From the NCBI GenBank assembly GCA_013115125.1, contig JABANN010000216.1:1-52299 (forward strand): a DNA stretch of 52,299 bases, read 5' to 3'. Source of the stretch: Perkinsus olseni (lineage: Eukaryota). A model generated the notes under the pieces. That model saw nothing but the letters and a program-made list of their open reading frames with translations. It searched no databases and was not told where the DNA came from. This document shows, piece after piece, positions 16,831 to 49,800 of the stretch; position 1 is the stretch's first letter; every line of letters starts with the position of its first letter. A program made the position numbers and the translations under genes.

Positions 16831-17076
16831 GATGGTTCAGCGGGCAATACTGGTGAGGCAATAGAAGTTGAGACGACAGGACCTCGCGCCACGAAATCCA
16901 TTGCAAACCGGCCGTGTGACTGCCCTCCGAGCTTTTCGAGTTGAAGTTAACCGTCGATAGCATTCAGGAGAGACAGAGCAGCAGGATGTTGATCACAGTC
17001 ATGAGGTAATCGATTACCACGGCGTGCGCGACTGTCACGATGTAGTGTTGACTGTAGTGGTGGTGGTATATGTGTG

Positions 17077-19779
17077 ATGATACTCTTACCATCCCCGCCG
17101 ACCAGGGGTACGAGGCTTTACCCATGCATTGAAGAAGAGGAAGATGCCGAAGAGGAGGATGCCGAAGGGGGTGGTGATGCGAAAGCAGCGACGGTTGGGT
17201 GGCCGTAGTGGTGGTTGGGTCAGTTCAGGCAGCAGCCGCGGCAGGGCAGATGGTAGCGTCTTTGGTGGATTGCTTGGGGCAACTCGACCTCTACCCGAAA
17301 GATCCTTTACCGATGATAAGTACGCAGCCTGCCGAGGTGGTACATGCTGGGGTTACACGGGTTAAAAAGATACGCTCAGGTTCCACCGAAGGGTCTGTCG
17401 AGGTCTGCGTCGACCTCGGCTATGCTAGGCGTGGGCCGAAGGGAGGCGGCTGCGGCAGGGAGGCCGGTGAGGACTGTGGCTGGTGGGAGGGAGGAGGGGG
17501 CCCTGCCGAGCGTGCAGGCTGTCAAGGGATTGCATAAATCGGTAATAGGGAATTGAACCTGGGTTGTTTGTTAGAAGGATTGACGGCCACGGCGCAGGTC
17601 CAGTTCGCCACTTTACCGCACACACTTTGGCCGGTTGTGGTGGAGTCCTCACGACCGTCGTGCGGAGCGATGACCCCTTCCCCTCCACCAGCCACCAGCG
17701 ATGCTCGGCCGAGTAGACCCGGTATCGAAGACGACGATTCCACACCAGTAACACTAGGCTGCCCACTGTGCGACATGAAGGTCGTCAATGAAGAGGAGGA
17801 GGACACCACAGCTTGGAGTCGCCCACCCCGCTGCTCTCCTGCTTGTCATCAGACACTCAGGCCGGGTCTATCATCACATACAACATCACCACCGCAGCGG
17901 CCTCCTTCGAGTCACTCTGCCCGGCAACCCCACAAGTATCTTGTACACTTGCCATCGACATGAGTGTACCTGCTCGGGTGTCTTTTCGCACGATATTCGA
18001 CGGTCTTTCAGGCTGGACCCTCCCTGCCAAGCCGCGGTCTCGGCGTGACAGTCGGGTCGGGCCGAAGACCCCAGAAGGCTTGGTCGAGTCGTCGAGAGGG
18101 GAGGAGAGGCCTAACAGGGGTCGCCACTTCCACTGTCCTGTCTGTGGGGTACTGTGCGTGGCTGACCAAAGCGGGGAGGGGGTCAAGATGCATCTGCTGG
18201 GGTGTAGGATGGCTCCTAGGCGGAAGATGGGCCCCTCGATGATCAGCGTAAGGCGTGTGAATTTCGTGGCGCGTGACGCTGTCGGTAAGCCGACTGTTGC
18301 GTCAGATTGAGAAGGTTGCGGAGATAGCAGTAGCGGATAGTGACAGTTACACGGTGGATGGCATTCGACCATTAAATGCCGGGGCCGAGGATCGAACCCG
18401 GGACCATGGCTTGAGGTTCCACAGTACTTCCTCAGTTAGCTACCGCTGCACTGGTCATCGCTGCGACCTCAGACGAGGTGGCGACTCGTTCCTTCCCTCG
18501 AGTGCTCTCCTTCATAGAGCAGCTGGGCTCCCCGGGCGTGGCCCACCGGCCCCCTCGGAAGAAGTACCGCCTTCCGTCGCCCTGCCCGCCATCCACCATC
18601 AGGTACCGTAAGTTGTACGACTTAACACCACTTGATGACACCTGCTTGGACGACTACATCGACGCTTTGTGTGTCAACGCATTCGAAAACCGCGGCCTAG
18701 ATTTGACCGGTGCAAAGTACACCATTGTGGGTAGGGTGCCACGCGCCGGGCCCTCTAGACCCTGTCGGGGTGCCGGTGGCAGGCTCGGGAGTGCCTCCGG
18801 TGGTGTTTGGTATTATCCGTGGGATTGGTGGCGATTTGTACGGTATCAACTACATAGAAGCGGAGCAATGGCGAGAGGTCACCCACGTCCTGGTCGGGCC
18901 GATGGTCCATGTGAGTGGCGGGTGCGTTCTATGAGAAGTCGGTCGTATTCGGGTAGGTTGGGAGTTTGAGGAACTTTTGCCATACTGTAAGACGACTCGC
19001 CTTGGCTGATAAGCTCCTCTGGGTGGACTGTAGGGACTTGCTGACGCCGGCGACGGAAGGTGAGGTGCTTTTTGTGGGGGTTGGTATCTTAGGTTGAAGC
19101 TAGGTAGTGTCGGAGGATGGACAATCACCTCAGTCATGTCTGCCTTGACCTGTAGCAAGAGGACACTTGGTAGTGGTAGCGTGTTGGTTGAGGGAGGGAT
19201 GACGCCCTGTAGGCTCCGCCGGGAAGGCGTCCAAGCGGGTGAAGGGCTCTCCCACCCCGTCTCCGGTCACCTCCCCCGACACAAAACCTGTCTCCCTACC
19301 CGCCATGGCCTCCGGTCCTCCTACTCAGAAGACCGTGGATAAGCCTTTACGGTTATGTGCTGTCACCTCCAAGTCCTTCACGCCGGCGCCACGAGTGGTC
19401 CTGGGTCATCACAGCGATGCCTTCGCTACTACCAATGACCTCTCTCCGGGTCGATTGAGGGAAGAGGGTCATGGGAGGGCTACTGGCACGTACTCGACTG
19501 TCGATTACTCCCCGACTTACCGGGGCCTCGCGCCCTCATCCGAGTATGATGTCCCATTGATACCGGGAGTCACTGTCACGCCAGGCAAACATCGTGAGAG
19601 GAGGCGGAGGAGGGGGGCTGTACGGGGGTGGTATGACCACGGACTTTTCGGTGGATTTTTGGTATCAGGTTCGACCAGGCCCGGGTGTTGATGATACCGA
19701 AGTTACTCCGGCGCCTAGAAGGTCGACGCGTCTGTCTCGCAGTGCCCCGCCGAAGGATTCGCTTCTGTCCTCTGGTTGA
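17077..19779 (+). CDS. Multi-exon hypothetical protein with CxxC motifs and a low-complexity Pro/Ser tail
   Basis: Frames join across GT-AG introns (e.g. 18248-18305, 18354-18435); CPLC and FHCPVCG...HLLGC motifs. Confidence 0.55.
18377..18449 (-). other. Degenerate tRNA-like element (A-box in host exon, T-arm/B-box in intron)
   Basis: 73 nt: GCAGCGG TAGCTAA...GGTC CCGGG TTCGATC CTCGG CCCCGGC A; T-stem intact, acceptor stem 5/7 paired, no valid anticodon arm. Confidence 0.65.
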
Positions 19780-19966
19780 TGATGAGCTCGTCCACCCTAG
19801 TGAGAAGTTGTCTCGCTTAGAATTGAATCCCATGCATGGTCTAATCAGAAATGAAGGTTTCCCTCAGCATCGCTGTTGCTCGTTGTGGTGGAGCGCGGGC
19901 TTTTTACACTTTTTCCATCAGTTTCTTCTTCAACCCTTTCACGTCTACTTCTACTTCTCCTCCACT

Positions 19967-22299
19967 ATGGCTGACGGTTGGCCCGCAAGTTCAGTGTTCA
20001 ACTCCCGAGCACCCGGCTATGCCTTCGACGACATCATCCTCCTGCCGGGACACATCTCCTTCGGCGTCGAGACTGTAGAGCTAGCTGGTCGCATTTCGAA
20101 GGACATCACAGTGAGTCTTTCGTAATTTCGTGGCGCGTGACGATGCCTTCCTTGCCCCTTCAGCTGCGAACGCCCATCATCAGCAGCCCTATGGACACTG
20201 TGACCGAAGCGAAGATGGCGATCGCCATGGCCCTTCTCGGGTGAGGTGTCGCTGCGCGGACGCTTTTCGGATGATGTTACTTTGCAGGGGTATGGGCGTC
20301 ATCCATGGTAATATGACCACGGACGCTCAAGTGCAGGAGATCCTCAAGGTAGGTCAACCTCTTTTGTGACATGCATGAGTCGACCTTGGATACCATCAGG
20401 TCAAGCGTTACGAGAACGGCTTCATTATGGACCCCTATGTGCTCGGTCCGAATAATACTGTCGCCGACGTCGATGAGATCAGGAGGGTAATTTCGTGGCG
20501 CAGTGACGAATTTCATCTTCCTGTGGTGTAGGTCGAGGGGTTCTCCTCCGTGCCCATCACCCAGAGCAGCCGTATGGGAGGCAAGCTGCTGGGCATAGTC
20601 ACCAGCCGGGACATTGACTTCATCGACGATCGCACTACCCTTCTCAAGAACGTCATGACTCCGGCTAAGGACTTGGTGAGTATCTTTTTATTTGTGCAGT
20701 GCCAGAGTCGACCTCGTTGCGAGACAGCTTGGTCTGTTTGTTATTTTTTGAGGGATGGAATCCTTGATCGTCGATGATGCTGTTCAGGTTGTCGGCACCG
20801 AGCCCATCTCCCTTAACGAGGCGAACGACAAACTTCAGGATGCCAAGGTGGGCAAGCTGCCCATCATCAACGGCGACTGGGAGCTGGTGGCTCTGATCTC
20901 GAGGGAGGATCTCAAGAAGAATAAGTAATTTCGTGGCGCGCGGTCATGAGTTTAGAAGGAGGATTCTCATTAGGGACTACCCCAATGCGTCCAAGGATAA
21001 GAACAAGCAGTTGATTTGCGGCGCGGCTGTGCCGGTGAGCTTCCCTGCGACCTCGTACCATCTCTTGCACAACTCTCTTCAGATTCTTCCTGACATGGAG
21101 CTCCCTGCCCTCGAGGAGAGGTGCCGGCTGCTGGTCGAGGCTGGTGTTGATCTGCTGGTCCTCGATTCGCCTGATGGGGACTCGTCCGTCCAAGTGGAGT
21201 TAGTGAAGCGTCTTAAGGCTAAGTAGGGCACCTTTGTGCATGCGTGCAAGTCTCGTACCACTCCTTTCCCTACAGACATGATAATGTTAACATTATGGCG
21301 GGAAATGTGGTATCAGTAAGACAAGCCAAGAGCCTCATTGATGCTGGTAGTACACAGCCTCACCATCCATTCCTCTGGGCAGCCCCCCTTCCCCCTTCAT
21401 TCAGGAGCTGATTCCCTTAGAGTTGGTATGGGCTCCTCCTCGGTCGGTATTGGAGCTAGCATTACGGCTGTCGGCCGTGCCCAGGCCAGCGCCGTCTACC
21501 GCGTCGGCAAGTTCGCCCGGGAATATGCTAACGTGAGGATGGGAGGCCTCCGCCGCTGGTCGCTGCTTCAGGGGTGGTATCTTAGGTGCCTGTCGTGGCC
21601 GACGGTGGTATCCAGAACTCGGGTCACATTATGAAGGCTCTCTGCCTGGGGGCCAGCGCGGCTATGATGGGCAGTGGTTTGGCTGGTACTGATGAGGCGC
21701 CAGGTGAGTGGAAGGTGGAGTGCACGCATGCGCATGCGTGCAATTTTCATACTAACTTTTCGGTGACTCGTCGTGCAGGTGACTACTATTATTCTGATGG
21801 GGTCCGCGTGAAAACCTATAGAGGAATGCACTCCTTCAATGCTGTCCGCGAGTGCTTCACGAACGCTGGCAAGGACACTAGCCGACTCGACAGACCTTTC
21901 GCCGCTCAAGGTAATGGTATCTGGTTCGATTCCCACGGGCGTCATTTTTCCGCCTCTAGGCGTACAAGCAGCAGTTGTTGACAAGGGCTCAGTGAACTCT
22001 CTTGTGCCCTACCTCGTCCAAGGCTGCAGGCATGGGTTCCAGGACCTCGGCGTCCAGTCGGTCACCCAGCTACATCACCAACTCGACGATGGTAATGATA
22101 ACAACGTTTGGGGTCGCCGCGCGATGCCCCATAGAATCTCGCCTGGTTGTCGCCCTTCGCAATGCCACCTTGCCTAGGTACTCTCCGCATGGAAGTCCGG
22201 TCTGGCTCAGCTATCAAGGAGGGAGGGGTCCATGACTTGGTCCGACTGCCCGGAGCTGGGGCTGGTGGTGGGATGGGCCGTGGACAGGGCAGGAACTGA
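19967..22299 (+). CDS. IMPDH: IMP dehydrogenase-like protein with CBS domains, ~14 exons; catalytic Cys replaced by Gly
   Basis: [35 protein letters not shown] pair, AGNVV, LRVGMG, VVADGGI, KTYRGM, DKGSV, EGGVH; all introns GT-AG and in frame. Confidence 0.92.
21872..21944 (+). other. Degenerate tRNA-like element across an IMPDH exon/intron junction
   Basis: TAGCCGA at 21879 (tRNA position 8) and GGTTCGATTCC with T54 at 21925 (canonical 46-nt spacing); A73 at 21944, followed directly by TTTTT. Confidence 0.6.
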
Positions 22300-22476
22300 G
22301 TAACACTACTGCTGCTCCAACGTAACACCAAGACTGCCTACTAAAGGTCTCCAGTCGAACGATCATCGTAAACAAAGTCTCTAGACTCGACAGTTTTCCA
22401 CTTGAGTATTTATCAATAGCCAGGGGAGGGTGGACGATAGTCATCCGTGCAACGCGCAGTTCTTAGCGACTTTGGC

Positions 22477-23336
22477 ATGCCTCGCGGCTTGGGGACGACA
22501 ACACTTTCGCGGCATGCTAGTGGGACAGGAGGACCAGGCAGCCGTGCCGGTGTACGGGCGGGGAATGGCGACTCTGACGGTACTTGACAGCGGAGCGAAG
22601 CGATTTTCGAGTCATCGTTTTGTGCCTTAGGTATGGCCCCTCCAGTATGGGAAAGTGCCATGGTGCCCCTTTACGAGGAGTACATTGACGTGTGCTGTAG
22701 CATGTATTTTGATGGCTCTGCCCAGGGCGTCACGGTCGATGGTCTTCGGGGTTACTTCAGGTAGGCCAAGGGGTGCAGGGAATTGTTATAGTCCAACTAC
22801 CTTCTCATCAGGAGGTTGATCGAGCGTGAACGTGGACGCCCTGCCCGCCCGGAGCCCTTGACGGCCATCCCGAAGGAAGCGATGGCACGGGAGGGAGCAA
22901 CGGGGATAGTCGATGCTGAGGCGAGGAAGGAGCGTCTCTTGGCGGAGATATCGTCATGCACTGGGGGACTACTCACATCGAGGTTGAGAAAGAGACAGGC
23001 TATTGATCTGTAGGAAGTCGAGAGGGTTCATCCGTGCACTAGTCTGGTCAGGTGGGGTCCCTTCGACGCCGCCTTGTTTCTGGCCGGGCTGTCCCGTTAC
23101 GGTCGCAATTGGCATCGGATAGGGAAGCTCACCACCGGACGGAAAGATGCTAAGGATGTTGCAGATATGTACTAGTCTCCCCTGGACACGTGCTTGGGGA
23201 TTTCGCGCGCCACGAAATTGGCAGGTACTACGGTGCTCTGAAGTCGGCGAAAAGGACGAAGTCGTTGTGGAAGCGCTACGCTTGCATTCGGGACACGACC
23301 GCGGGAGCCCCTCCCAATCGATCGATCTCGGCTTGA
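22477..23336 (+). CDS. SANT/Myb-domain protein, multi-exon
   Basis: Spliced WGPFDAALFLAGLSRYGRNWHRIGKLTTGRKDAKDVADMYY matches the SANT pattern. Confidence 0.7.
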
Positions 23337-23442
23337 CAACTCGGTCACGTAAATAAAAATTGGTTGTAGTCTCTTGAGCAGGGAAGATCTGCTGCTGGTT
23401 GTTGTTGTTGTTGTTGAGTTTGCGCACGGCGAAGGATACGTC

Positions 23443-25762
23443 ATGGGTGTTCAGTTAGTTGGGGATGGACTTCTCGCCGGGCCGGCCGGATTTGTCGTCT
23501 CTGGTGAGGCTGTCTCTTCTCGTCTATGCGGGAGTCTCCGCGTAGGTTGACCGCAGCCCGCTGGACTCGATGCCCTTCGACGAAGGGAAGGGCTATGGCG
23601 GCTCGGTAGGAAGGTGGCCGTGCGGCTCTTCTCACTTCCAGCGCCATCGTTAGGCTTTTGCTGTTCCGTCGTACCGCTGTAAGATCGACCATAGTGAAGT
23701 CCTCTGTCTTGATCTCAGCAATCTTCGACTGGAGGGAGGCTGAAGGGCATCTCTCTGACGCCGCCGGAAGGACACTCCGAGGGTTGGGGTAGGAGGAGTC
23801 CTCTGGGGATGGAGTCGCCGAGCAGCCCGATGAGTATGTCGATTGTGGTGAAGTGCCGAATGATGATGGAGGAAATGTCTATTGAATTGCAGCAGATGAA
23901 AGATACTAAGTTAACTTGCAGGTGGAAGTCGAGCTCGGAAGGATATGTTACTTTCTTTGAGGTGCGACCTGGAGCGGAAGATCCGGGCGACGGAGCTTGA
24001 GTGTGCAAATCTGAGGGAAGATTATCAAAAGGAACTTAATAGGCGTAGGGAAATGCAGAATGAACTACAAGAGGCTGAGATAGCGAAGGGGGATCTTGAG
24101 GTAAAGGTCTCACGTTTTTCATGCAGGCGACTCTGGTTCGATCCCACCACTGGTCACGGCATTTTTTTTCACCTACTGGGACTCCTCAGGCCCAGCACGC
24201 CTCCATTCAACGGAAACTGCTGCTGGCCGAGTCTCGGGCGTCTGAGGCAGAGAAGCAGTGCGATGAACTCAGAAATGAAGTGGACAGTATCACTGCAAGG
24301 TGAGGGTGGGGGTCTCCTCTCCCACCCTCAGCCATGCGGCAGACTGTCTGAGGCAGCGGCGGCGAAGTCCCGAGTGGAGTTGCAGGCGGCTGATGCCGTG
24401 GCTGAGGTCCACACTTTAAAGACCGAACTGTGTGAGACTGGCAGCCGGCTGGTAGAGATAGAGGAGGTTCGATGCAAGGATTTGGTAGGAGGTTGCGTTG
24501 GGGAATTGCAAGATTGCAAGATTTTAGGAGGACTTTCAAGCGCAGCTGGTTGAGGCTGAGCGACATTGGCGGGAGGAACTGGACGCGAAGTATGAGGAGA
24601 TTGCGCAGCTCACGGATACGCTGAGTGAGACCACGGATGCCTTAGAGGGGCAGAGGTCCGAAAATGGTAGGGGGAGGGGTGACCGAGTGTGGGTAGGGGT
24701 TGTTCGTGGCTTCAGAGGTGCTCACTGAGAGGAGGGCGAGGGCGGAGGACCAGCATACGCGGCAGACGAAGGAGCTGCAACATCATATCTGCATGCTTGA
24801 AGGGGAGGTAGTGGAACTCCTCTGGGGTGGTGGTGGGGAGAGAGTGTTGAAACTGGTCGTTTTCATGGCAGTTGAAGTCGTCCTGCCATTCGGCGAGGCT
24901 GGTAGCGGAAAGTGAGAGGGACAACGCGACCTACGCCCGGAACCAGGTGGGTGGGGCAGAAGGATGATGGGTGGGAATCTTAACGACTCGACCTCAGGCC
25001 TTGGAGACTGAGGCTGGCTTGAGAAGGGAGTTCGCGGAAAAATTGCAGCAACAGCGGGAGAAGTACAAGCAGAGGGTAGGTCGATATTGGGCATCTGTTC
25101 GTTGCCATTGTCGACCTAAGATACGCGACCTCGAGGAGGAACTGCAGAAGCGGAAGGAATATGAGGCACGGATTAAGGAGTTGTTGAAGACTGAGGTCAG
25201 TTACACGCACGACGCATCTTAGGTTCACCATGGCAAGATTCGGATAAGGTCCTCGCTGCCTCTTCCGTAGACCTTCACACTCTCGACCCTCAATGACTGA
25301 CTACTGGTCTTCCTCTTCATCAGACCAGCCTACTTCGTCGCATGAACGACGCCAAGGCGATAACATCCCCCGACCCACCATGCCTCACCGCCAGTCCCCG
25401 GTGCCATCATGGCCATCGCTTTCGGGACTGTTGCATCCACCAGCATCATCACGGGGAGAGGAAAAGTCTGGAAGTCGTTGAAGTGTAGTTATGTAAGCAG
25501 CGCTCGCCCCGCTGATCGATTTTGGATCAGATCTTCGCCATCCCGACTGGCGGTGGTTGAAGAGTGTCCGAACGCTGCTGCTGCTCGGTACTTGGACGAA
25601 CAGATGAGGAAGGTCGAGAGGCGGATCTTATCGGGTGAGAGAGCTCCCCTGAGAGGCGCTGGGGATGGGCTATGGTCAGGCCTGAAGCATCGGAGATCGA
25701 GGAGTTGCAGCAGCCGTCCTCGTTATGAGTCGGCGGCGAGGGGAGGTCGACAGGCAAGCTGA
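23443..25762 (+). CDS. Multi-exon coiled-coil protein
   Basis: E/K/R/Q/L-rich heptad exons (ELECANLREDYQKELNRRREMQNELQEAE; IRDLEEELQKRKEYEARIKELL) separated by short GT-AG introns. Confidence 0.65.
24074..24156 (+). other. Degenerate tRNA-like element across an exon/intron junction
   Basis: A-box TAGCGAAGGGG at 24081 in the exon; B-box GGTTCGATCCC at 24135 in intron 24101-24189; T8 run at 24162; A-to-B spacing like long-variable-arm tRNAs. Confidence 0.55.
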
Positions 25763-25881
25763 AGTAATTCACCATCACCACGGACTGTCATACTTGTATC
25801 ACGATTATGATGATAATGGTGGGGGTGGTGTTGTGGGTGGCCGGGAGCATTCTGACACCTCTAGCTGTTATTTCTGAGCAC

Positions 25882-27944
25882 ATGTCTTCGGAAGCTCCTA
25901 AAGCTGCTGCTGCTGCTGCTGTGCCAAAGTCGCCGATGGCGGTGGCCTACAAGGCCTCCTTTGCTTGTCTGGGGACACTCTTTTTGATCACCAATTTCGT
26001 CATAATCCCGGTCAATTTGCAAATGATATTGTAAGGGTATCTAGGGTTGAAGCGTGAAAGATACGATTTAGGTCAGATAGTGGATGACCTTCTGATAGGT
26101 ACACGGCTCCGATTATGTGTATTGCGTGCCATCAGAGCCTAAAGCTGAACAATACAAGTGAGGTTGTGGGGCGTGAGAGCTGCGGTGGAGACTTTCCCTT
26201 TGGCAGATGCTGACGGGAAGAAGGAGGACATCGACTCGGTCTCGCAGAAGGACGCCATGATGTTCCCAGTTTTCGGCAGCATCGCGCTGCTCAGCTTGTG
26301 AGTCTTGGCTGCCTCTGGCCGTTGGGGGGGGAAGTCAGCGAGGGGACCTCCGGTCCCTGGTTGCTTTCGTTGGACTGCGATCGTTGAGAGCTAGGAAGGG
26401 CTCCGAATTTAAACTTTGCGTCTGTGTGAGGAAGGCCGTTCGACAGGTCGGAGTCTCCCCAGGTACCTGGCCTACAAGTTGGTCTCCCCCTACCTCATGA
26501 ATCTCCTCCTTACCGGCTATCTCGGCATGCTAGGTAGTCGCAGCGTCGGCAGACCGTACACTCCAGTAGTTGTGTATCAGGCGTCGGGGCCCTGGCGGAG
26601 ACCGTGAAGCCCCTCGTCGACGGTTGCCTTCCTGACAACCTAACCGAGAACAAGTAAGTCCATCACAAACGAGTCCCGCCGTGGTGCACTGCCGCTCGTC
26701 ATTCCATTGTGAGCTTCTTTTCGCCACCTTCCGGGGACCGGGAGGGTCCGCATGGCATTAAACTCTCCCGCTGTTGAAAATGGTACAACCATCCTTCGCG
26801 TGGTGGATTGCAATCCTCAGTACGATATTGATTACGAAGATTTCACGGAGGTTAGCTGTTGTCAGATTTCACATCAACTTCACCATGCCTGGTCTGCTGA
26901 TGAAAGTGTTCGCGGAGAAGCCGGACGAGGATCCCAACGTTGACATCAAGTTCAGCTACTCTCATGTAAGATACCCTCCACTCGTCGCTCGCACGCTTCA
27001 ACCTAAGATACTCGTCTATGGAGTATCGGCTATCCTGGGGGGTATTTTTGCTTGGACCAAGCAGTTCACCATCCACAACATGTTTGGTAAGTCTCCACAA
27101 CCGTCTCCACCGTTGCCTCCACAACCCTCCCTCAGGTGTTGCCTTCTGTATCCAAGCCATCCGTCTGGTCTCCCTCCACAAGTTCTCGGTGGCGTTCATC
27201 CTCCTCGCCGGTCTCTTCGTCTACGATATTTTCTGGGTATGACTGACTCGTGCCGTCCCTCACGTTGCAGTAACTCTCTCAGGTTTTCGGCACTGAGGTT
27301 ATGGTTTTCGTGGCCAAGTCGTTCGACGCGCCGGCTAAGATAATCTTCCCGCTCTCCTTCAACCCATGGAAGCAGGGAATTCTCGGCCTCGGCGACATTG
27401 TTGTGCCGGGAATCTTCATCGGCCTGTGTATCAGGTCGGTTTCTCGAAAGATTCCTCACCGCACAGGGAAGGATTCTTTATCAGGTTCGACTATCACCAG
27501 GATCAGGTTAAGAACAAGAGGGCTCCTGAGAGGGACGTAGACATCCAGCGGCCCTTTCCCAAACCGTAAGTTAGCGTTGCTCGCGAGCGACGCGTCTGGT
27601 GAACATCCCTCACCTCTAGATACTACCACAACGTACTGATCGCCTACATTCTGGGCCTCATCACTACAGGGATCGTCATGCAGGTAATCAGCCTGTGGCT
27701 GCTTCTGTATAAGGGCTGTGGTTTTCAGATTTTCAATGCCGCTCAGCCGGCGCTTCTCTATCTTGTCCCGTTCACTGTCTTCACCGCTTTGGGGACGGCA
27801 TACAGCCGAGGTGAGTGGGAGACTGGTGCGGCGGCGGCGGGCGTGTGAGTGTTGTGGTTAGGTGAACTGAAGGACATGATGGAGTACACGGAGGGGGAGG
27901 AAGAAGATAAGAAGAAGAGAGAGGAGCAGAAGAAGGAGAAGTGA
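25882..27944 (+). CDS. SPP: Signal peptide peptidase (presenilin-type A22B aspartyl protease)
   Basis: Catalytic YD (FVYDIFWV), LGLGDIVVPG and QPALLYLVP motifs; DAMMFPVFGS; C-terminal KKEK ER-retrieval signal. Confidence 0.93.
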
Positions 27945-29726
27945 TGATTTTTACGGCCGCTCGATGGCAGCTCTTGAACGTGACAACAACCAACTGTCAT
28001 TTTGATGAGGATAGTCAACTTGGAGGCGTTGTGTTGTGAAGTGCCGAAGGGAAACACGAAGAGAGTAAACGAAGTGGAGGGTTCGCCATCGTCAAAACGT
28101 CGATCATACTGAATGAAATAGTACCCAAGTACCATTCAGGGAGGGTAGCAGCTCAGTCGTACAACTCTCGAGGAGGCAGAACACTGGCCACTCCCGTCTA
28201 ACGGCTGACGAGCCCACCGGAGTGCGGTTAGCAGACTCTGTCGAGCGACAACCAGATTTCCCCTTTTCGGGTTCACTTCCGTTTTGGCCGCTTAATACCG
28301 TAACCGAGGGCGATTGGGAGGAGGTGGTGCCGAAGCCCGAACAGTGCGATGCAGCGGGGTGTCACTCGTCAGGCATCTCGAAGCAGCCGAGAGTCGTGTC
28401 AAATTGCTTGCCCCAGACAGGGGCGGCGGCTCAGTTTTCTGGCCCAGAACTGTGACAGCCACTGCGAGTTGGTGGGCAAGCGAACCACAGTGCCCGAGCT
28501 GGAGGCATGAGATCGCGGCTGGTGATCCCACGACCTACCAGTTCGAAGCATTCTCCCCGCGACCTAGGTCGCCCGGTTGTGGGTGGGTGGGTATAATTTT
28601 CTCACGCATAAAATGAGAAACCACGATTCAAAGGCTGAGAAGCTGGCATAAGACACTTGCCCAGATTGCTGTTGGAACCGAACGTCTGGGAACCTCTGGG
28701 AGGGCTTTCTGAAAATGCGAAGTCATTCATGAGCAACTCCACTCAAATGAGAGCGATTATCGCTCAGCGATAGAATAGGTTGTAAGAAGAGGACTCATCT
28801 CGTCGAATCAGCTGCTGTGCACTCGGTCAGCCTCTGGTAGACAGTCCGCACCAACAAGCACATCTCCCACAGTGAGACGGCTGATACGGTCCTCGAGTTG
28901 TAGCTACACGCGAGACCGGTCGTTGGAACTCCTTTGTTCTCGAGTATTGCCCAAACCGATGCTGATCGCATTCCGCACAGACTCCATTGCCTCGGACGGT
29001 TTGGGTGTCACCGTCTGATTATCCCCTCGAGTGTCACCCCACTGAAGAGCATGATATCAAACCACTTGATCTCTTCCTCGGTTGGCTGTAGGTAGCGTAG
29101 CAATTCCCACTGCTGCACACCTGGTGACACGTATCACCGCGAGGAGGCCTAGAGTGGGCGGTTAACAGTCACTTGTCCCTCGTCGCCGCGATCGGGTCCC
29201 ATCTAGCGTGGCGTGACCTCAGGGGACAGCTATATTGTTCATTGCTTTCGCACTGCAAGCTTGAAGCTAGCACTCGGCCGAAGCCTCACTCCCACTCTGA
29301 CTGAGCCATTACATGCTCACATTGCAGCATCGGTTGGTCTCAGGCGACGGGCCGTCGCCTCGCCGTCGCCGACGGCTCTGGGCCGTCTGAGTCGTATTCT
29401 TATTGATCAACCATTCGTGACTAGGCGGACGCGCGTTGCTCATCGTACTCCTGCGTTAGTGGTTGCGGCCATTCCAAGTGCTTTTAGGAATCTTCGGCGA
29501 GGATGAGACTCTTTTAAAACCGTCGAGCAACGTTCCTTAGCTTGACGAACAGAGCCTAGGCAACAGGCTAAACCAATCCCCCACAGAAAGATACATCGGT
29601 GGCACCGATTCGGTGCTAGTCTAAGCCTTACTTTTGGCGTTGGACTTCAAACTTACACAGACCGTCTCTTGCATTGATTGTCAGGCAGTGAGTCGCATCC
29701 TCCTGGGTCATCAGTGCTTTGCTTCG

Positions 29727-30815: not shown

Positions 30816-31302
30816 AAGTTAATATACACTTTTGTCCTCTCAGAGGGCCTTTTCAATATAACTCGTCAGAGTTTCGTAGTTGCTACGCGGGCTCAGATTT
30901 CATCACGCCCGGATCCTTTTTTTCTTCATCATTTCCTTTTTTTATTTAGTTCGGCCGAGTGAGTAGAGAAGTAACAGCCATTGCATTGTCAAGTGATGGG
31001 CGTCGGTCTTTTTTCAGGCTTCTTAGAGATAGAGACGGCGTCGAGTTATTTTGGAGTTACCGATATAAGAATCATAGCTACACCTTCAAGAGGCCTATTT
31101 CACGATCAGTAAGATCCATTTCGCCAGCGCGCGTGATGGTACAATCAATTTCGTCGGCACACCCGAAGTAACTCCAATTTCGACGAAATGCGGGAATCAA
31201 TTTCGCTGCAGTGACGGATTCTGACGTCCGACTGTTGTAGGCTGGCCGTTTCGCCTATCATGATGCCAAATCCAAGTTACAATTTTGATGATGAGAGCTA
31301 CC

Positions 31303-31345
31303 GATTACATGATTGATGATGATTACATGATTGATGATGATTACA
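31303..31345. repeat. Tandem duplication of 18-nt unit gattacatgattgatgat (x2.4)
   Basis: Direct inspection. Confidence 0.85.
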
Positions 31346-33922: not shown

Positions 33923-34241
33923 CTACGAGGTACTTACAAAAATAAAAACTTCAACGTTTAACAGCAGCACTCGCATCGGTCTCCGACGCTGGGCGAAGTT
34001 GATGGTATCTTAACTCGAAGCACGCAACAAAGAAATTAGCCCACAGAAACGTAGATAGATAATTATAGCAGCCCTTAGCGGCTCTTCTCACTAACACTAG
34101 GGGACACCAGAGGGGACTCGTTAGTGAAGTCCCCACTGCCAACCACTGCTCTGGTATCTTGTGAAGGGGACAAGCATGATGATGATAACTCCCCACGTCT
34201 CCATTGACCCACGAGACACCAGGAGCGACATAAGATACTAT

Positions 34242-36670: not shown

Positions 36671-36777
36671 CGGGAGGAAAAACAACAACAGTCTCCCTAC
36701 AGGAGGGCAATCATCAACTGCCGCGTCAGCCCACCAACGACACTCAAAAGGAGTACAGGAAATACTGAGCATGCTGC

Positions 36778-39326
36778 TCATGCATCGGTGGCGCAGCGGA
36801 ACTTGACGGGGTCGTCGCCAACACGGTGGGAGGGTCTAGCCCCGCCAACTCGAATGATACGACTCTTTCTTCGACCTTCCACACGCCTCGGTGACTGCGG
36901 CCTCTTCTTGCCTTCTTGACGACTCTCGCTCTCCCCAGCCCGGCTCCTATCGTCTTCCTTCACCACCAGCGCCACCTCAGCCACGACCGCCGCGACGCTG
37001 GGCTTACTCGTAGCCTGCGGCTGAGGGCCTTCCGACTGGTCACGGCGGTAACGATGCTGCTTCGGCCTCTCTGAGGTGACCTCGCTGGTCTTCACGTTGT
37101 ACCAGACCTCCTGTCCAACCACGACAGCCCTTCGCCAATCGCCCATCCGACCCTGCAAGGCCAGCCAGCGCTCATCGGAGAACTCATCCCCAGAGGGTAC
37201 AGCAGGCAGCGCTGCCTTGTGTTGGGGAGAGACTGGACGGGAGCCGGAGGCCTCTGAAGGAGAATTGCATCACCGCGTGGAATTTCGTGGCGCGCGAAAC
37301 TGCCATTACCAGTAAGTTGAAGTCGCTTCTCTCCCGGCCCCGGTTGGTGCCACAGTCGGTCGTGACCGCAGCGCCTACAAATTCCGTCCGCCCCTCCCAG
37401 GGTGAACCAAGGGCATTGGCAAAGATCCGCTTCCTCTGGTTGAAATCGACATCTATCACTCAAGTCAAGGGTCAACCTAAGATTCTCCTCCTCCGGACCA
37501 GAATCAATATCTTCATTATCCTCTGACGCAGCCGAAAGATTCTCTACCCTCCCGGGAATGGCCAACTCCGCGGCGACCGGCGTCCCCTGCGCATCCTCTG
37601 CAATAGTAGCTGGGGCTTCTTCACCATGTGCACGCAGGCGCAAAATCTTCGCTGTGCGTAACTGGGCGTATCTTTCAGCCTCCTCGTGGAAGATACTCGA
37701 CCCCAACCTCCCTTTCTCAACCGTAAGCTCCTCCTCCCCCTGATCGGATTCTCCCCAGACCTCAGCGACGCCTCGAATGGCATGCACATACGGGTCAGCA
37801 CCGAAGTTGACCGAAAGTCTCAACGTCGCTTCACTGTCGCCGAAGACACTCACAGCGACGTACGGCGCTGGCAGGAACCCCCACTCGGCTGAGGCGGGCC
37901 GAGGGGGCCGCATAGTCACCGGGCAGGATATCTCAAAGTCGGTGCCCCTGAGGGATCGATACCTGTCAAGAGGAACTTCGGGATGGCGGAGCTTCCAAGG
38001 TACGGAGCACTCAGAAAGGGCTACATGTCGAGCGGGCGTGGACAAAACGACTGCTCGAAAGGAACGGGAGTCGATGAACGGTCATAGACCAGTGAAGTGA
38101 GAAGTGAAGTACTCGTGAAATATGGCTCGGGCATAATTCTGCGAATTTCTGTGGTTCCTGAAAAACACTAATGTGGTACATAAACTTAATTTTGGGCTAC
38201 ACTTTCAGTAGCACCCCATTACCACAACACCAATAACGGATTTCCGAAGCACTGACGGCGACTCCCTCCGACCTCACCCGAAGAGCATTCTCTCGCACTC
38301 TAACTGCCGTAGGGGTGGTTCAAGGCCACCATCATCACCCATTGGCAGCCGCAAAGATTCTATCAGAATCGGACGGGCATGGCACAAGCCGCCATTCTTC
38401 AGAAAATGTACCGCCCCCATCAGCTTCGCTCCGTCGTATTTTCTGTCAACAATCATCGTAATGGTGTCTCCCGAGCTGAAGCCTCCTGGGTCACTTCTGA
38501 CAGACACCCTCCAGTCGCCTGAGTAAATCAACCCGTTCGAGAAGTAGCCCACACTGTACGGGAAATGGCCAGGGAACTCGCCCACCGGAGTTGGCTTAGG
38601 CGATAGACCAACACACATGATCGCTGACGAGCCCTCCGGCGCTGAATCGATTGTCAATTCCACTACGCAAAGGCGTTGGAAGGGCAGTGGCAAGCTGGAC
38701 AGGATCGTGCTGGGCTCTCCACCACCACTGAAGATCTCATACACCCCCGCCCGACCCTCTCGCTGGCACCATCCACCATCCCCAAGAACGTCCATCCTCC
38801 AAGACTCACCCCCTCCCAGAATTTGAGTCGTTCGAAGCGCCTGCCAATTAGAGACAGGGTAGACGTCGAAGGCATCGCCATAGAGTAAAGCTGGTCGGGT
38901 AGGGTCGATACCACCGAGGCCAACCCGCTCACTAGGCATGACGAAATCTTGCGATGAATCTTCCCCGGCTTCGCTCCGCCGCCCGTCTTTATTACCCTGA
39001 TCTTTGCCAGGTACCATCCAGCTGAAGGCCGCTTTAGAGGCCTCGTCAATACCAAATTTCCGCCGAATCCTGTCCAGATCAACCTTGGGAAAGAGCCTTC
39101 GACCCATGGAACTCTCAAAGAAGGCCACCAAAGCCTCCCCAATTGCAGCGGCAACATTCTCCCTCAGTTCCACCACTACCATCGACTCTCTATAATGGTA
39201 CAACAACAATAACGATACCAATAGCACTCCACAGATGACGAGCACAGCCAGCAGGGCCGGAGTAGAGGTGGAAGGATCAGGGCGGATCGGGAGGGGCCTA
39301 CGAGGGTCGTACGGGTAAGATGCCAT
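36778..39326 (-). CDS. Single-TM SPRY-domain protein with a Cys/His cluster and a WW-like domain
   Basis: N-terminal TM helix; SPRY features (VELTI, CVGL, FPGHFPYSVGYFSNG, GDTI, FLKNG) continue into the next ORF (PYVAVS...VNFG), implying one spliced gene; CQC...CRRCGH...H; WRRAV...VWYNVKTSEVTSERP. Confidence 0.7.
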
Positions 39327-39462: not shown

Positions 39463-41400
39463 TCACTTCTGCAGTTTGTTACTCTCTTTTCGACTCTTCA
39501 TAAAGCTCAAGCCTCTCCCTATCATTTTCTTCTTCTTCGTGGAACCCCTCCGGAGCTTGCTTCGTACCGAATCATCGTTCTCGCCTGCGGTTTCACCGCT
39601 TCCCTGGCCAGTTTTTTCCTCACCACCCTCCTCCGCTGGCCTCCATGAGAACAACACGACCTCGCCATCGATGGTCTTCACTTGCACCGCTCCGCCGTCC
39701 CTCCGCAAATTTAATTCTGCAACCCCCATCACTAGGGGTTGGAGATTACTCCGATCGACAAGCTCCAACCTAAGATACTCTGGCATTCTTGTATCTTCCG
39801 TGCTCCAACCCAAGATAACTCTATAAAAGTAAGGACCTATCAATCCCATTGTTCTACAGCCCTTCTTCTCCGACGCACAATGGACCGACACTGTGCCGTT
39901 CTCGAATCTGATCCAAACGACCCAGGTTCAATTCTAGGCGAGCGCATTTTATTACCTTAGAATATCCTCTTTACCCTCTCCCTTGTCGTTGGTATAATAA
40001 CCATCTTCTTTAGGTGTCGGCAAGCCAGCCGCCTTACCATCTTCACCAATATGAGGCGCCCAAGGGAAATAAAAAGGATCTTCGTACCCAGTAAACGACA
40101 GTCTCACCGCGCTCCCGTCATGTCGGACCATCACTCGCGATCCATTAACCTCCTCCCGCCCTTCAGTGTAGAGATCGAGCTCATAGTACAACGGTCCGCC
40201 GGAATTTTTCACCCCATAAAGGAACCTTTGGCCTGCAAAATCCGACGTTGTGCTGGCCCGATCCACATCACGCGGACATCGCATCGACACAAATTGTTTA
40301 TGGGCAGCTCGAAATTGAAAGTAGCACCTCTCATAAGGGCCCTTCTGGCCAAAGTAATAGCCCTCCAGTCTCGGTTGAGGTAGATGAATTTTTCTCTGCG
40401 GAATTGCCAAGTCATGGCGTTCCCACTCGAAAAGTGTCTGCAAACCCGCGGCTTCTTCCGCTAGCCTTAGGAACAGACCATTATCGCTGACTGCCAGACT
40501 GTAATCTGTGAGATCCGCGGCCGAACCGAGAACACTGAGACCGAGTCTGCCGAAGTCTTGACCGGAATATCTGGTGGCGAAAGGATCGAAATCAGGGGTT
40601 GTGGAGATTCGGGAAGAGAAGGAAAAGCATGATAGCTTCTTTCTGAACGCTGGCGGTGTCTTGCTTGTGTCCGTGCAATCCATCTTCACAACCCTCCTTT
40701 GACGCGAATCCAGTCTCATCTTGATCTTGCACCCTTCGAACCTGCCTTGCCCGAGGTAGTAGCCAACCGCCCTCAACGGTAATTTCCCATCATCATCATC
40801 ATCAGTCGCCGAGCCCTCAATGAACTGACCCCAGTTTAGAAAGTCGAACCGAAAAAGCCCTCTACTTATCATAATTTTTTCGCAGTTCTGATGCATTTGA
40901 AAAAATATAATACCACCACCACGATCGCTCACCATCTCGTGCATATAATAAAACTCCGGGAGTGTCGAGTCCACGGGCTTATCAAAAACAACATCTTCGA
41001 AGGTCCACCTCTCGTTAATACCAAAACGATCTCTTTTCGGGCACGTCCAAGTCGCCACCCCTCTCGACGAATGCAAGTCCAGTCTTCGGAATGCCAACCG
41101 GCAGCCAACCAGAGAGTTGTTTCCAAAATAGTAGCCCGTCGTTTTCGGACAAGATTCCTCCCACAGGTTGGGGGAGACCGTAAAGGCACTGTCGACGCTG
41201 TCCAAGCTGACAACGTCCGAGCGCCTGCTGTTCAGACTGAAGCTGCTGATGCTACTACCCAGGCCACTACTGCTACTACTACTCCTGACCGACCTGCCGT
41301 GGACTTTGATAGTATTGGTGGTAGCACGGACGATCCCGCAGCAGGTGAGGAGGAGGCCGCAGGACAAGAGGGCTGCGGGGGAGGGTAAGGGCATGGACAC
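39463..41400 (-). CDS. Secreted protein with 3-4 repeats of a GYY..GC..CP module
   Basis: Signal peptide; 482-aa first exon, probably spliced to the 39463-39940 frame. Confidence 0.65.
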
Positions 41401-43145: not shown

Positions 43146-43504
43146 TGGGAAACTAAAGACGATAGATACAGGAGAAGCCCTTGGGAGCTCACAAGGGTTC
43201 TGGGGCTTCCGAGCAACCAGTTGTGGAGCTCAGGTTCGATTCGGAAACCACAATTCACGGGTTAAAATGAATCCTGAGTTACAGTATGGCCTACCGAGCA
43301 AGGGGTAGTGCTGAAGAGGTGACCCGCCTGCCAGGGTCCCCTCCCCGATGGTTGGCCCGGCCGTAAACGTCAGAGAGGGGCCTGACACCTTGTGGAAAAG
43401 CGAGACATGTGCGGACGGAGACGGGAGACGGGGTCATCGTTGAGGAAATGAAAGAGAGCAAGAGTGCCATCTTGATTCGTGTGGTTCACAGTCCATGCGT
43501 CACT

Positions 43505-44922
43505 ATGTTTTTGCCCACGGGGTTGGCATCAGATGAAGTTGATGCAGCGGCGGTAGATGAGGACACTATCAGTAGAGTCCAAGTTTATGCTACTGACGCC
43601 TTGCCAACCTATTCAGCCCACCAGTGGCGTCATGAGGTGCCAAAGTGGCTTTAATTGAGGCAATACAGGCGCTGACTGCTCAGATACGATTTCTCATAGA
43701 ACTGTTGATGTGGTACTTCTACATTTTCCGGGGGAAATGTGGTAGGACTAGACCGACCCCTGGGCAGGAGCTCTACAACGTGCATTACACTGTACCATCA
43801 CGCAAGGCCAAGATCCTCTTCCTCCTACTTGGACCGGTCCTCTCCTACGCTTCCGTCTGTGCCAGGTAGGGGACGCTCGGCCGTCGTCCGTCTGTTACCT
43901 CTTTCTTCAGGTTTGGCGACAGAGGGTCCTGGCTGCAGAGCTTCGTGGCGAAGTTGAGGTTGTTGCACTGGGTGGCCTTCCTCAGCGGCATCCCCGGGGT
44001 TAGTGGTAGTATAAATCGGGTTAGGGGGGGGATGGAGGGAGGGAGCCCCTATGGATACTTGGGCCGGTGGAGGAGTTTTGAACTTTACTGTTGTGCTGCA
44101 GAGTTGGTCGTGACAGTTGCGGGCGGCGGCGGCGCCCTTTGTGGTGAGAGACCTGGCGATTATTCCATGTACAGCACGACATACAAGCTGTGAAGCCTCT
44201 CTGGATTGACCTGCCTGTGGTGCGGTCGAATAGGAATGCTTCGACCTCGCTTGGTCGGACCGGACGCTGTTGGCCGTCGTGCCTCCCTTAACTCCGCTTG
44301 ATGCGACACCGGGCCCCTCTTAAAATATTGCGCGAATTTTTTGCGAAGAGGATGTTGGGGTTGACGATCCTCATTCGGTCGCCCTTTTCAGCAAGCCCAG
44401 TTGCGACGGCTTTGGGTATGAAGAGCGTACAGATCGATCCGCAGGCTCAACGTGTTCATCAGCTGGAATACTTCCATAGGTAGGGTGTTAAATCCGCGCG
44501 CCAAAGGTCTCGGGTTCGATCCCCACGGGCAGCCTTTTCGAGGTACTTGCTGGTGCATCACTTAACTGAGCTCCTCACAGCAGCGTGGCCTCTGGTTTCC
44601 AATACCAGTGCCTTCAAACGAGTACGTCTTTGCGTCACGCGCCACGAAATTCTCTAGGAAAGTTCCCTCGGCAGGTTTCCCGGAGACTTGCCGGTGTGTG
44701 TAGGAAGCCTCTCGATAAAAGCAACTGCGGCGTGTGCAGGGTAGTAGCCGTGGAATGATCTCCTACCACACCAGTCGTTTCTTTTCTCAGTGCCCGGCTC
44801 AAGTCGGATGGCATCAGATTTCTCCCTGCGGGTGTAGGATCTGCCATTACTGTTGGCATGCCGAGGAGGTCCCTTCGAAAGCCGCCTGCCCGTCCTGCGG
44901 AGGCCCTTGTAGTGTTCCCTAA
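43505..44922 (+). CDS. PEX2: RING-finger peroxin (PEX2-like), multi-exon
   Basis: EVDAAAVDED, TPGQELYNVHY, LLHWVAFLSG, LEYFHRYLLVHHLTELL and C-terminal RING CGVC...CGCRICHYC...CPSC after splicing. Confidence 0.7.
44462..44534 (+). other. Degenerate tRNA-like element across a PEX2 exon/intron junction
   Basis: 73 nt with T8A9, G18G19, AGGTC variable region and GGTTCGATCCC; first 4 acceptor pairs intact; followed directly by TTTT; other stems broken. Confidence 0.6.
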
Positions 44923-45024
44923 TGCCATCCATCTTTGCACGTAATACTTGTTTCTGTCTGTCCCCTTGGAAAGTAGTTCTCGGGATGGGTTATGGGAATG
45001 CAGCTGATCTCAGTCAAGTTGATT

Positions 45025-46696: not shown

Positions 46697-46808
46697 AGGT
46701 CATTCCAGTTTTGTATAAAACGGAGCGTCACCGCGCCACAATATTTGTTTCCGATATGCGCTGCTGTTCGTAGACAGCTCTGCTGGCGAGGAGGGATAAG
46801 TATTATTG

Positions 46809-49800
46809 ATGATGGTCTCGTGGATGGACGAGCTTCGTACTTCAGTAGAATCTGTTGCGTTAATCAGTGGTAACAGGTGGAGCGATTGGTATTGCGGCTG
46901 GCATATGCAGGAGTTGGTCGAGTAAGCGGAGCGAAGCCTGGCGAGTAGTTTTTAAATCGTGCCATGCAGTACCTCCTGGGACGTCGGCAAGGGAGCACTG
47001 ATAGTGTCGTATCAGCAGGGAGTGTCGGTAGGGGTAATTACTCAGGTTGGCAAGTGTGGAGATTGACTTGTGCTCAGGCGGGCCGACTGAATCGACTGTT
47101 TTTGTTGCTACTGTCCATCCTGGGTTAGAGTACATAAGTAACCTCTCACCATTAAATAGAACCCTTCTACTCCTCCAACCACCAGGGAAGAGTGGCTCTC
47201 TATCTGGTAGGACGATGAGGTGACCTTGTAAACACCGATATCGTCTGCTTGTAGTGGACGAGGATGGTGGGCAGCAGCGAGGTGCGACGATCGACGCGGC
47301 AACTGTAAGCCGGGCATGCGCGCCTCACATAAGAGTAGCGGCTATCAAACAACTACCGGAAACTTGCTATAGTGTTGGATACGAAGAGGCTGCTGAGTAA
47401 TGAGAGGGGCGCGATGGGCCGTCTGGGTGGAGTTCTGGGGTTCCACCGGGGTAAGTTTTCTTGCTATTGGGTCGTCCCAGATCGACTGCCGTGCTATCAG
47501 AGTTATGCTACGGCAATCGTCTCGAGGTATAGTCATGGTAGCAACACCTCGGTGTTTACATGTGTATTAACATGGCTCCGCTAGCTCAGTAGGCAGAGCG
47601 TGTGGCTGTTAACCACAAGGTCGGTGGTTCGAACCCATCGTGGAGCGCTATTTTATTCTCTGTCATGTAAACGCTCAACAGCCCGTTCCTTCGTTAGTAA
47701 CGAATCGTTACCAACGAATCGTGCGTACGAATATCAATCGTGTGCGCATGTCACGTCACACCAGGTCCAAATTAGGTACATCGTTCCGCTAGTGCTCCAA
47801 CGCCTACCCGGTGACCCGGACCCGTCAATTAGGCAGGCTCTCCTCGATACCCTCGGCGAACTGGCTGCCTTTCTCATCTTATCCGACCCAGAAGAAGGGT
47901 GAGAAGCTCCGTTTCCGCGGTCAGGATGCGCGCCCAACGCTGCCTCGCGCACGAATGAGCTCTCCCGATGCCGTTCTGTCAACCTCAAATCATAGATGCA
48001 GGACCCGGACTACAGGTACCACACGCTCGTCGACAAGCTCTTCCCATTGGTCACGAAGATGCTCGTGAATGACAAGTCGAGCGAAGTAAGCCATCCTCCC
48101 CATTGGGCAAGTGCGCATCCTCCTTGGCAGGTCCGGTCACGGGCGGCGACGGCTATGGCAACCTTGGCGGTCCACATGAGAGCTCGAGACCACGGAGAGA
48201 CGGTATGGACGATGCAAATCAAGCTACCAATTACATCTTCACTTGAGGTGCTCACAACGCTCCTTCGGTTATCGCAAATGCCAGCAGATCCCACAGCATC
48301 AGGGGCTCTCGGCGAAGATGAAACTGACAGTGAGTCCGCTACGGGTGGCAACTCCGGACCGCTCACGCCTTAGCCTTGTCAGGTAGCGGGCAGTTCAACG
48401 GCACTGCGGCCACAGCAGCCGTCCAGCTCATGGGGCAGCTCTCACCCACTCTCGGACCGGATATATGCTCACAGTGAGGAGACCGTGCATCTGGACTTTG
48501 GCAGACGGCTACTGCAGGTACATTGTTGCCCAATTGAATTCGCTAACGGAAGAGCGCAGCCCCAAAGTTCGAAGATCCGTTGCGGGCGCTATGGCAGAAG
48601 TCGCCGCTGTAGGCTGGAAGCCCCTCATACGTATTCAAGTGCGCGTCATTCAGATCATTGGCCCGACATTAACTTTATCTAAACTCTACCCGTTTTACCT
48701 GCAGCTCACTCATGACCCTCACTGGGCTGTACGGAAGAGTGCTGTGGACTCGCTGCACCTGTTTTTGATGGAGCTGTTGCTATCCAACCGCGACCGTGAA
48801 GCGAGGTTGGCCTCTTCAACTTTCGTGGCGGAGAGGATATCTTTCCTTGTGACAGCTCATCCTCGTCGTCAAGCGGCCCGGTGGATTCAGCAGTCTCCGA
48901 GCTGCTGAGCGCCATGAGTGCCGCCTTGGTTACCGACACCAGTTGGTGGGTGCGGAAGGCTGCGATGCTCAAAGTTGGTTACGTAAGTCTAGCTTCATCA
49001 TCATCATCATCCTTGCATGTTGTCGTGCAGGTTGTCGCATCTTGCAGCCCCCTTCTGAGCCACCCCTCCGTCCTTAACGCCGTGGACCCCCTGCTGGCGC
49101 AGTTCTCTGATCTCATCGTCTCCTACGCGTCTAATCTGTCCCAACTGTCCAGCAGAGTAACGATCATCAATCCACGTCGAACAGGCCATGCCCAGCTACT
49201 CTCAGGACCCCTCAACCAGCGTCAAGGGGGCCTCCAGTGAGGGCGGTTCTCTTGGTGGTGCGGAGCTCAGCCGCGAGATCCTCTATCACGCTGCCTTCAC
49301 CTTCGTCGGTACGCCCCCTTCCTCTCCCCATCGCCTCCCACCGTCCGCTTAGGTGTCGCTCGAGGCGTCTCCTCGGCCCCGATAGACTTCGCCACCCTCT
49401 GGCCACAGCGCCTGCAGAAACCCTTCTTAGCGCTCTTGCACTGTAGCGAATCCAGAGTTCGGTGAGTCGGCCTGCTTCGCTCCGCCGGGTAGAAGTTTGG
49501 ATATTTTTCGTGCCCCCTTAGTCGGCCGTTAATCGCTTCCCTGCACATACTGGTCGCCAGTGAGCAGTGCCAGGAGGTCTTCGAGGACTGCGCCTTGGCT
49601 GTGATACAAATACTAGCGTCACCTCAATCTGTAAGTCTTCTGCCATCCATTCTGTTTGTTGCCATGATCAACCTAAGATATGCCTGCTCGCTCGGTCGTA
49701 GAGGGCTTGTGAGCTCATCTCGAGGGAAAGCCTTCGGGGCGTGTAAACAGTCGAGCGCGTGGGCAGTATCGGAGGCCTGCGGATGGTTTGATTGCGGAAA

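Follow-up and report, generated by a model that had tools for sequence, protein, structure and literature searches.

Recurrence of a 14-nt non-coding word in short introns and gene flanks of a 52-kb contig segment, and its possible role as a DNA-level protein-binding site

Why should one short word recur, almost letter for letter, in the introns and flanks of otherwise unrelated genes? The question was raised by a 52,299-nt stretch of DNA (positions 1 to 52,299 of contig JABANN010000216.1, assembly GCA_013115125.1; hereafter the window), in which a first-pass annotation had reported near-exact copies of a motif in short introns of five genes, including three copies in the gene for IMPDH. We analyzed the recurrence, placement and orientation of this motif, whose core is the 14-nt word AATTTCGTGGCGCG. 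The recurrence is real and strongly non-random: on both strands of the window, the core matched nine times with at most 2 mismatches compared to 0.36 matches expected, and none of 100 dinucleotide-preserving shuffles reached nine matches. Six copies are exact (18260+, 20124+, 20927+, 23206-, 37281+ and 44638-), two carry 1 mismatch (16885- and 20489+) and one carries 2 mismatches (46732-). When microsatellites were set aside, the most frequent 12-mer of the window was that of the core word. The coordinates and sequences given for these copies by the annotation were correct, its positions 23201 and 44633 being the copies at 23206 and 44638 counted with their 5-base tails.

The mismatch spectrum of the core was bimodal, with 6, 2 and 1 copies at 0, 1 and 2 mismatches, respectively. 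At 3, 4 and 5 mismatches we counted 2, 14 and 154 matches compared to 3.3, 28 and 178 expected from 40 shuffles, and no excess of decayed copies over the shuffles was found in the window at these distances. A further annotated copy at 48821 has 3 mismatches, belongs to this chance-level class and is no longer counted here. No copy with at most 2 mismatches was present left of 16885, as had been noted for the gene-poor left 12.8 kb. The idea that the word arose by chance or is an assembly or adapter artefact is refuted by the shuffles and can be set aside as next to impossible, as DNA runs of two studies contain the whole stretch and four RNA runs splice the word-bearing introns precisely.

Beyond the core, the copies fall into a few tail classes. 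The tail TGACG follows the core at 18260, 20124 and 44638, and a one-base-shifted form, GTGACG, at 20489 and 46732; CGAAA is found at 23206 and 37281, CGGTC at 20927 and AGGTC at 16885. Five of the nine copies have TG at positions 21-22, a feature noticed post hoc. The direct-repeat family of the word spans 22 nt only: past ~22 nt none of the copies could be aligned, and their flanks are unrelated. As the flanks are unalignable and the mismatch spectrum is bimodal, conservation is confined to the word itself. The invariant core holds ~28 bits of information, which makes many independent origins by point mutation impossible, and together with the shared tail classes this indicates that the copies are homologous and that something has copied them.

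To place the copies relative to genes, introns were predicted with an exon-chaining gene finder with an intron penalty, which recovers 14 of 15 RNA-confirmed introns and fuses neighbouring genes. The resulting set holds 65 short introns of at most 130 nt (3,820 nt in total), longer ones having been dropped as bridges, and the RNA evidence for joints consists of the 15 joints listed, out of 78, from contigs of four runs on 17700-37699. Six of the nine copies lie in introns (four RNA-supported and two predicted), three lie in gene flanks and none lies in coding sequence (p ~2e-4). The annotated placement of all near-exact copies in short introns therefore holds for the exclusion from coding sequence and for two thirds of the copies, but was too strong as a statement about introns only. 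According to the RNA contigs, splicing removes four copies together with their GT..AG introns of 45-56 nt: the three of IMPDH, which are sense, and one in the next gene, which is antisense.

The IMPDH gene (19920..22383, plus strand) is 517 codons long and is interrupted by 13 GT..AG introns of 45-112 nt, all RNA-confirmed; three have the word and ten lack it, and removal of all 13 yields 517 uninterrupted residues. All three copies are in sense orientation. The exact copy at 20124..20143 (tail TGACGA) lies in intron 1 (20111-20163, 53 nt; joint 20110/20164). The copy at 20489..20509, with 1 mismatch (..GCGCA) and tail GTGACGA, directly adjoins the GT of intron 4 (20487-20531, 45 nt; joint 20485/20531, cut +1), and the exact copy at 20927..20945 (tail CGGTC) likewise adjoins the GT of intron 6 (20925-20973, 49 nt; joint 20924/20974). 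Each of these joints was present in all four RNA runs, which bears out the annotated position of the three IMPDH copies, two of them directly after the GT. The fourth RNA-supported intron (23169-23224, 56 nt) is the last one of the next gene on the plus strand, which we take to be SANT/Myb-like from a reading of its peptide rather than from a family search. It holds an exact copy with tail CGAAA on the minus strand (23201..23219), antisense to the gene and 5 nt from the 3' splice site. RNA support for this intron comes from contig pieces that start at 23225 and from record coordinates that leave exactly a 117-nt exon, 23052-23168.

The remaining two intronic copies are exact. One (18260..18279, plus strand, tail TGACGC) is sense to a predicted plus-strand gene with no family assigned and begins 12 nt past the GT of an intron predicted at 18248-18305 (58 nt). 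The other (37281..37299, plus strand, tail CGAAA) is antisense to a minus-strand gene and lies in an intron predicted at 37254-37309 (56 nt), which connects two long open frames. Both introns come from the gene finder only: their joints are not among the 15 of 78 listed, and RNA depth is low at both. RNA evidence thus confirms the introns of four copies, while those at 18260 and 37281 stay predicted. The three copies outside introns are all on the minus strand. The copy at 16885..16898 (GATTTCGTGGCGCG, 1 mismatch, tail AGGTCC) is 52 nt upstream of, and sense to, the start codon of a gene labelled FKBP12 on the basis of FKBP_C matches on exon pieces. It lies ~30 nt before a pyrimidine-rich ...CACCAG, a candidate splice, perhaps trans-splice, acceptor, and is probably situated in the outron or 5' flank of FKBP12. 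The exact copy at 44633..44651 (tail TGACG), for which the annotated intronic position could not be confirmed, is 347 nt upstream of the start codon of a MINDY deubiquitinase gene, in antisense orientation, and the sole GT..AG around it spans 36 nt, less than the shortest RNA-confirmed intron (42 nt). Finally, the copy at 46726..46745 (AATATTGTGGCGCG, 2 mismatches, tail GTGACG), also antisense, follows the MINDY stop codon at a distance of 36 nt and may belong to the 3' UTR of this gene or to intergenic DNA.

The significance of the intronic placement depends on the background chosen. In the span 17960-42010, which is 61% coding and 15% short introns, all six copies are intronic (p ~1e-5 against the span and 0.0035 against its non-coding DNA), while for the whole window six of nine copies in introns is no significant excess over non-coding DNA as a whole (p = 0.088). 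The 65 introns share 10-12-mers far more than shuffles do, almost wholly through the core word. It can safely be said that the word is non-coding, that it is mostly removed from mRNA and that it occurs in six of 65 introns. As to orientation, five copies are sense and four antisense when each is compared with its nearest transcript.

How could such a word be maintained? The reading that we favour, tentatively, takes the copies to be short homologous elements in which selection maintains the core as a putative DNA-level protein-binding site. Elements of ~20 bp of non-coding DNA would form a dispersed family with the invariant core AATTTCGTGGCGCG and a few 5-6-nt tail classes, and purifying selection acting at the DNA level would keep the core intact while the surroundings drift. 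Most probably, an abundant protein that binds DNA sequence-specifically would recognise the core; this could be a general regulatory or an architectural factor, or else the core could be a composite transcription-factor site. Short introns, outrons and short gene flanks would be the sole room for such sites in a gene-dense, trans-splicing genome. The recurrence is non-random, independent of orientation and excluded from coding sequence, as a DNA-binding site would have it; that a protein binds the word, and with what effect, we infer. We favour action at the DNA level because the word occurs in both orientations, because it is found in 5' and 3' flanks besides introns and because no RNA structure is apparent. 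In particular, copies in gene flanks, 52 and 347 nt ahead of start codons and 36 nt behind a stop codon, are more easily reconciled with a DNA site than with a signal specific to introns, and, as the gene-rich span is 61% coding, introns and outrons may simply be where sites can sit. Thus, the binding site for an abundant protein proposed by the first-pass annotation remains the best reading, as a putative one.

Several points nevertheless weigh against it. The ~28 bits of the core are far above what ordinary transcription-factor sites need, and the shared tails (TGACG, CGAAA, CGGTC) point to common sources from which the word was copied and away from independent evolution of each site, so that a spreading mechanism would still be needed. 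Both antisense intronic copies (23206 and 37281) are of the CGAAA class, which is quasi-palindromic and reads TTTCGCGC on the opposite strand; strand-independence within introns therefore rests on a special case. Furthermore, the sample consists of nine copies in one 52-kb window.

A possible, though less probable, alternative is that a copying process has inserted the copies recently, so that they would be intact through youth and not through function. They could be a miniature mobile element of ~20-25 bp, templated filler DNA from break repair, or the recognisable rest of intron-creating elements. An information content too high for convergent origin, the lack of decayed copies and the tail subfamilies common to copies, including a copy outside the window that matches through ...CGCGGTC, all argue for insertion, as does the position of the word, which adjoins the GT in two IMPDH introns and, in antisense, comes within 5 nt of an AG. 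Intron lengths bear on this question in two ways. Word-bearing introns are not longer than the others (median 54.5 compared to 50 nt, Mann-Whitney p = 0.54), and insertion of the word into pre-existing introns is accordingly not supported. At the same time, the 45- and 49-nt introns would shrink to 25-29 nt without the word, while the shortest introns of the window are 39 nt (predicted) and 42 nt (RNA-confirmed). The word is thus unlikely to have been added to an intron of normal size, and was probably part of these introns from the start, which speaks for the insertion alternative. Against insertion stand, besides the equal lengths, the three of nine copies outside introns and the end of similarity at ~22 nt. 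By eye, we saw no target-site duplications, paired inverted ends or boundary repeats beyond AG|GT in the six introns, for which no dedicated scan was made. Moreover, we know of no mechanism that spreads 20-bp units.

Introners are the known case closest to this alternative. In Micromonas, Aureococcus and dinoflagellates, and as inverted-repeat introners in Amoebophrya, a repeat is likewise common to many short introns of unrelated genes in either orientation. However, introners are alike over the whole intron and often have terminal inverted repeats and boundary direct repeats. The present copies are alike over ~22 nt only, the introns that hold them have canonical GT..AG ends, and a third of the copies is found outside introns. 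Introners are present in related lineages (dinoflagellates and Amoebophrya), which is a point in favour of insertion, but the entries for P. olseni, P. marinus ATCC 50983 and P. chesapeaki in supplementary Table 4 of Gozashti et al. (2022; PMC9860276) give ie = 0. The pipeline of that study seeks whole-intron similarity and would miss a 20-bp element. The papers found to mention both Perkinsus and introners report none in this genus. Given that whole-intron similarity is lacking, that the published screen is negative for three Perkinsus genomes and that intron lengths are equal, the word is not an introner in the published sense, and the annotated suggestion that it is the footprint of an intron-generating element is not supported in its classical form.

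A different possibility is a role in the pre-mRNA, where the word, placed in introns or outrons, would help to define very short introns with weak splice sites, either as a protein-bound enhancer by the 5' splice site or through the TGAC of its tail as a branch point. Several features of the sense copies would suit such a role. In four of the six introns with the word, the copy is sense and begins 3-14 nt away from the 5' splice site; the copy at 16885 is sense and ~30 nt before a probable acceptor, and the splice sites follow a weak consensus (GTRRK). Among yTrAy-like words, TGAC is the most frequent in the 65 introns, with 18 occurrences of which 16 are 10-37 nt from the 3' end, and, by hand count, its A is 22-28 nt from the 3' end in the three sense introns with TGACG-class tails. 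Even the two antisense intronic copies could be accommodated, as they are quasi-palindromic and their transcripts also begin (G)AUUUCG. However, 59 of the 65 introns do without the word, and at 44638 and 46732 copies of the TGACG class, which is not palindromic, run antisense to the sole neighbouring gene identified. In antisense copies the loop sequence is complementary rather than identical, and yet the full 14-mer is kept. Nor was a common predicted RNA structure found in the six word-bearing introns: their minimum-energy folds differ, their fold z-scores (-1.42 to +2.28) are like those of nine control introns, and only the CGAAA class forms a hairpin, of 6-8 bp. We therefore regard action in the pre-mRNA as unlikely. 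The annotation had already judged a plain splicing signal improbable, and the five sense and four antisense copies, one of the latter in an RNA-supported intron, sustain that judgement.

If the core is a protein-binding site, which known sites does it resemble? The annotation had pointed to E2F. The E2F/DP consensus is TTTSSCGC, and IMPDH is a nucleotide-synthesis gene of a kind often under E2F control. The opposite strand of the CGAAA class, TTTCGCGC, does resemble this consensus, but the 14-nt core extends well past any E2F site, and TTTSSCGC, on either strand, occurs in two of the nine copies only (23206 and 37281), both of this quasi-palindromic class. The resemblance is therefore weak, and the word is not an E2F site in general. 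A parallel to the favoured DNA-level site is offered by the sites of CTCF, ZNF143 and yeast Abf1/Reb1 and by transcription-factor sites spread by small transposons, which are likewise long, near-invariant, orientation-independent, multi-copy and non-coding; compared to the sites of architectural factors, placement in 45-58-nt introns would be unusual. Another short word with a regulatory role that is dispersed in myzozoan DNA is the promoter word TGCATGC(A) of apicomplexans, to which AP2 factors bind. Its sequence is different and shorter, and it has no relation to the present word. As a separate observation, TGCATGCGTGCAA itself recurs in two IMPDH introns, and the word GTGCATGCGTGCAA, which contains TGCATGC, is common to two IMPDH introns, at 21225-21258 and 21719-21752.

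Another reading would make the word a fragment of a Pol III-type gene or a SINE, for instance from the A-box region of a tRNA-like or 7SL-like RNA, dispersed along with the tRNA-like pieces of other introns. The Pol III A-box consensus is TRGCNNAGTGG, and the variant at 20489, TGGCGCAGTGA, fits it at 10 of 11 positions; furthermore, strings like a T-arm or B box occur in other introns, with GGTTCGATTCCCACGGGCG followed by T5 at 21923 and further ones at 36128-36198 and 39908-39955. However, the canonical word is without the A and fits the A box poorly, and no copy has a B box at tRNA-like spacing. Rfam gave no family at or near any copy, at gathering thresholds or at E values up to 5, and the only tRNA that Rfam and ARAGORN found in the window is a tRNA-Asn at 47575-47648, the other Rfam hits being weak and unrelated. 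We consider this origin highly improbable. On their own account, tRNA-like pieces were seen in introns and spacers at 21923-21950, 44513-44545, 36128-36198, 39908-39955 and 18365-18450; they contain a T-arm/B-box-like GGTTCGATYCCCACGGGC, in one case followed by a five-T run, and none of them was called a tRNA by ARAGORN or Rfam.

Is the word restricted to this window? Some RNA contigs that have no other match to the window break with base precision where the word does (ahead of 20123, 20489, 20927 and 37277; after 18280 and 20945), which shows that the word is dispersed to several other transcribed loci. Such foreign contigs match up to 20945, through ...CGCGGTC, and then diverge; one RNA contig holds two copies of the word 22 nt apart. 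The loose contig sequence beyond the word recurs in RNA runs of different studies. In metagenomes, AATTTCGTGGCGCGYGAMR matched at least 120 loci, which we rejected as unrelated bacterial DNA that tells nothing about the word, with a mean G+C of 0.63 and flanks that recur between loci, as conserved bacterial sequence would; each has a single match (one has a second at up to 1 mismatch), and frame 1 reads NFVARD. The literature searched yielded no instance of the 12-mer in a relevant context, matches to 10-12-mers being primers and unrelated constructs, and nothing relevant on Perkinsus promoters, repeats or intron motifs. As far as these searches reach, the word is undescribed in print.

The host was treated as a perkinsid-like alveolate with spliced-leader trans-splicing on the evidence of two mRNA 5' ends, that of IMPDH (19920) and that of a minus-strand gene (36698). 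Both carry an identical nine extra letters that, together with the genomic AG, match the 3' end of the 22-nt spliced leader of Perkinsus marinus. This leader sequence is in print (PMC3101222, PMC9399869) and contains TCTT, by which perkinsids differ from dinoflagellates. PMC3101222 describes Perkinsus introns as mostly <100 bp, the shortest being 39 bp, and these sizes fit the introns of the window. In such a host the word might have a wider meaning. Extrapolation from one copy per ~4 kb of gene-rich DNA would give a genome-wide, lineage-specific perkinsid word with possibly thousands of copies, located in about one intron in ten. An architectural factor not yet described could dock there and so use introns as landing pads, or the word could be the mark of a new intron-seeding process, unlike all known introners, that copies only ~20 bp; we think this extension doubtful. 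Perkinsids, sister to the dinoflagellates, are serious shellfish parasites. Their control of transcription and the way in which they define very short introns seem to have been little described, and the word would provide a concrete handle on either. If it were the mark of intron birth, the introner idea would extend to elements ten-fold smaller than any known.

The genes around the copies are arranged in same-strand blocks, on the minus strand to ~17 kb, on the plus strand at 18-31 kb, on the minus strand at 32-43 kb and on the plus strand again from ~44 kb, with strand-switch regions at ~17000-17900, 31000-31800 and 43200-44900. The left 16 kb hold two dispersed repeat pairs (1700-2276 with 9819-10398 and 4023-4559 with 14594-15070) at 84-92% identity. 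They overlap with open frames that are paralogous to each other, 338 and 356 codons long from stop to stop (335 and 336 residues modelled). A 571-codon frame in the same region matches Pfam DUF6740 (E = 1e-95), and a look-up in the protein atlas gave no usable match for it. The gene finder predicted no short introns left of 13.5 kb. Further to the right, two paralogous halves in tandem, alike in their exon patterns, make up a membrane-protein locus on the minus strand at 31869-36696. The halves pair at 32754-32877 with 35375-35498 and at 33596-33647 with 36324-36375, and one 124-nt stretch is 92% identical.

Other words are dispersed through the window as well. A second one, GCGGAGCGAAGC, has 8 matches at up to 1 mismatch compared to 0.35 expected, on both strands (16157, 22590, 31939, 38423, 38968, 45844, 46926 and 49474); one copy lies in an RNA-confirmed 5'-UTR intron (22580-22630) and two lie inside a 365-codon open frame. 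We considered whether AATTTCGTGGCGCG and GCGGAGCGAAGC could be the convergent ends of one element, 600-1100 bp apart, and rejected this pairing: the pairs were picked post hoc, no partner exists for the four copies of AATTTCGTGGCGCG from 18260 to 20927, and exons of conserved genes fall within the intervals. A third word, TATCTTAGGTTGA, has 6 matches at up to 1 mismatch compared to 0.04 expected (19085, 25111, 26998, 37472, 39765 and 49668), several of them apparently in frame in predicted exons (..LRL..), and the related GGTATCTTAG forms the 3' splice site of the IMPDH intron 21533-21585. Finally, the word GAAATGCAAG(ATTGCAAG) recurs at 24496, 36508, 43438 and 35969, in three predicted introns and on both strands.

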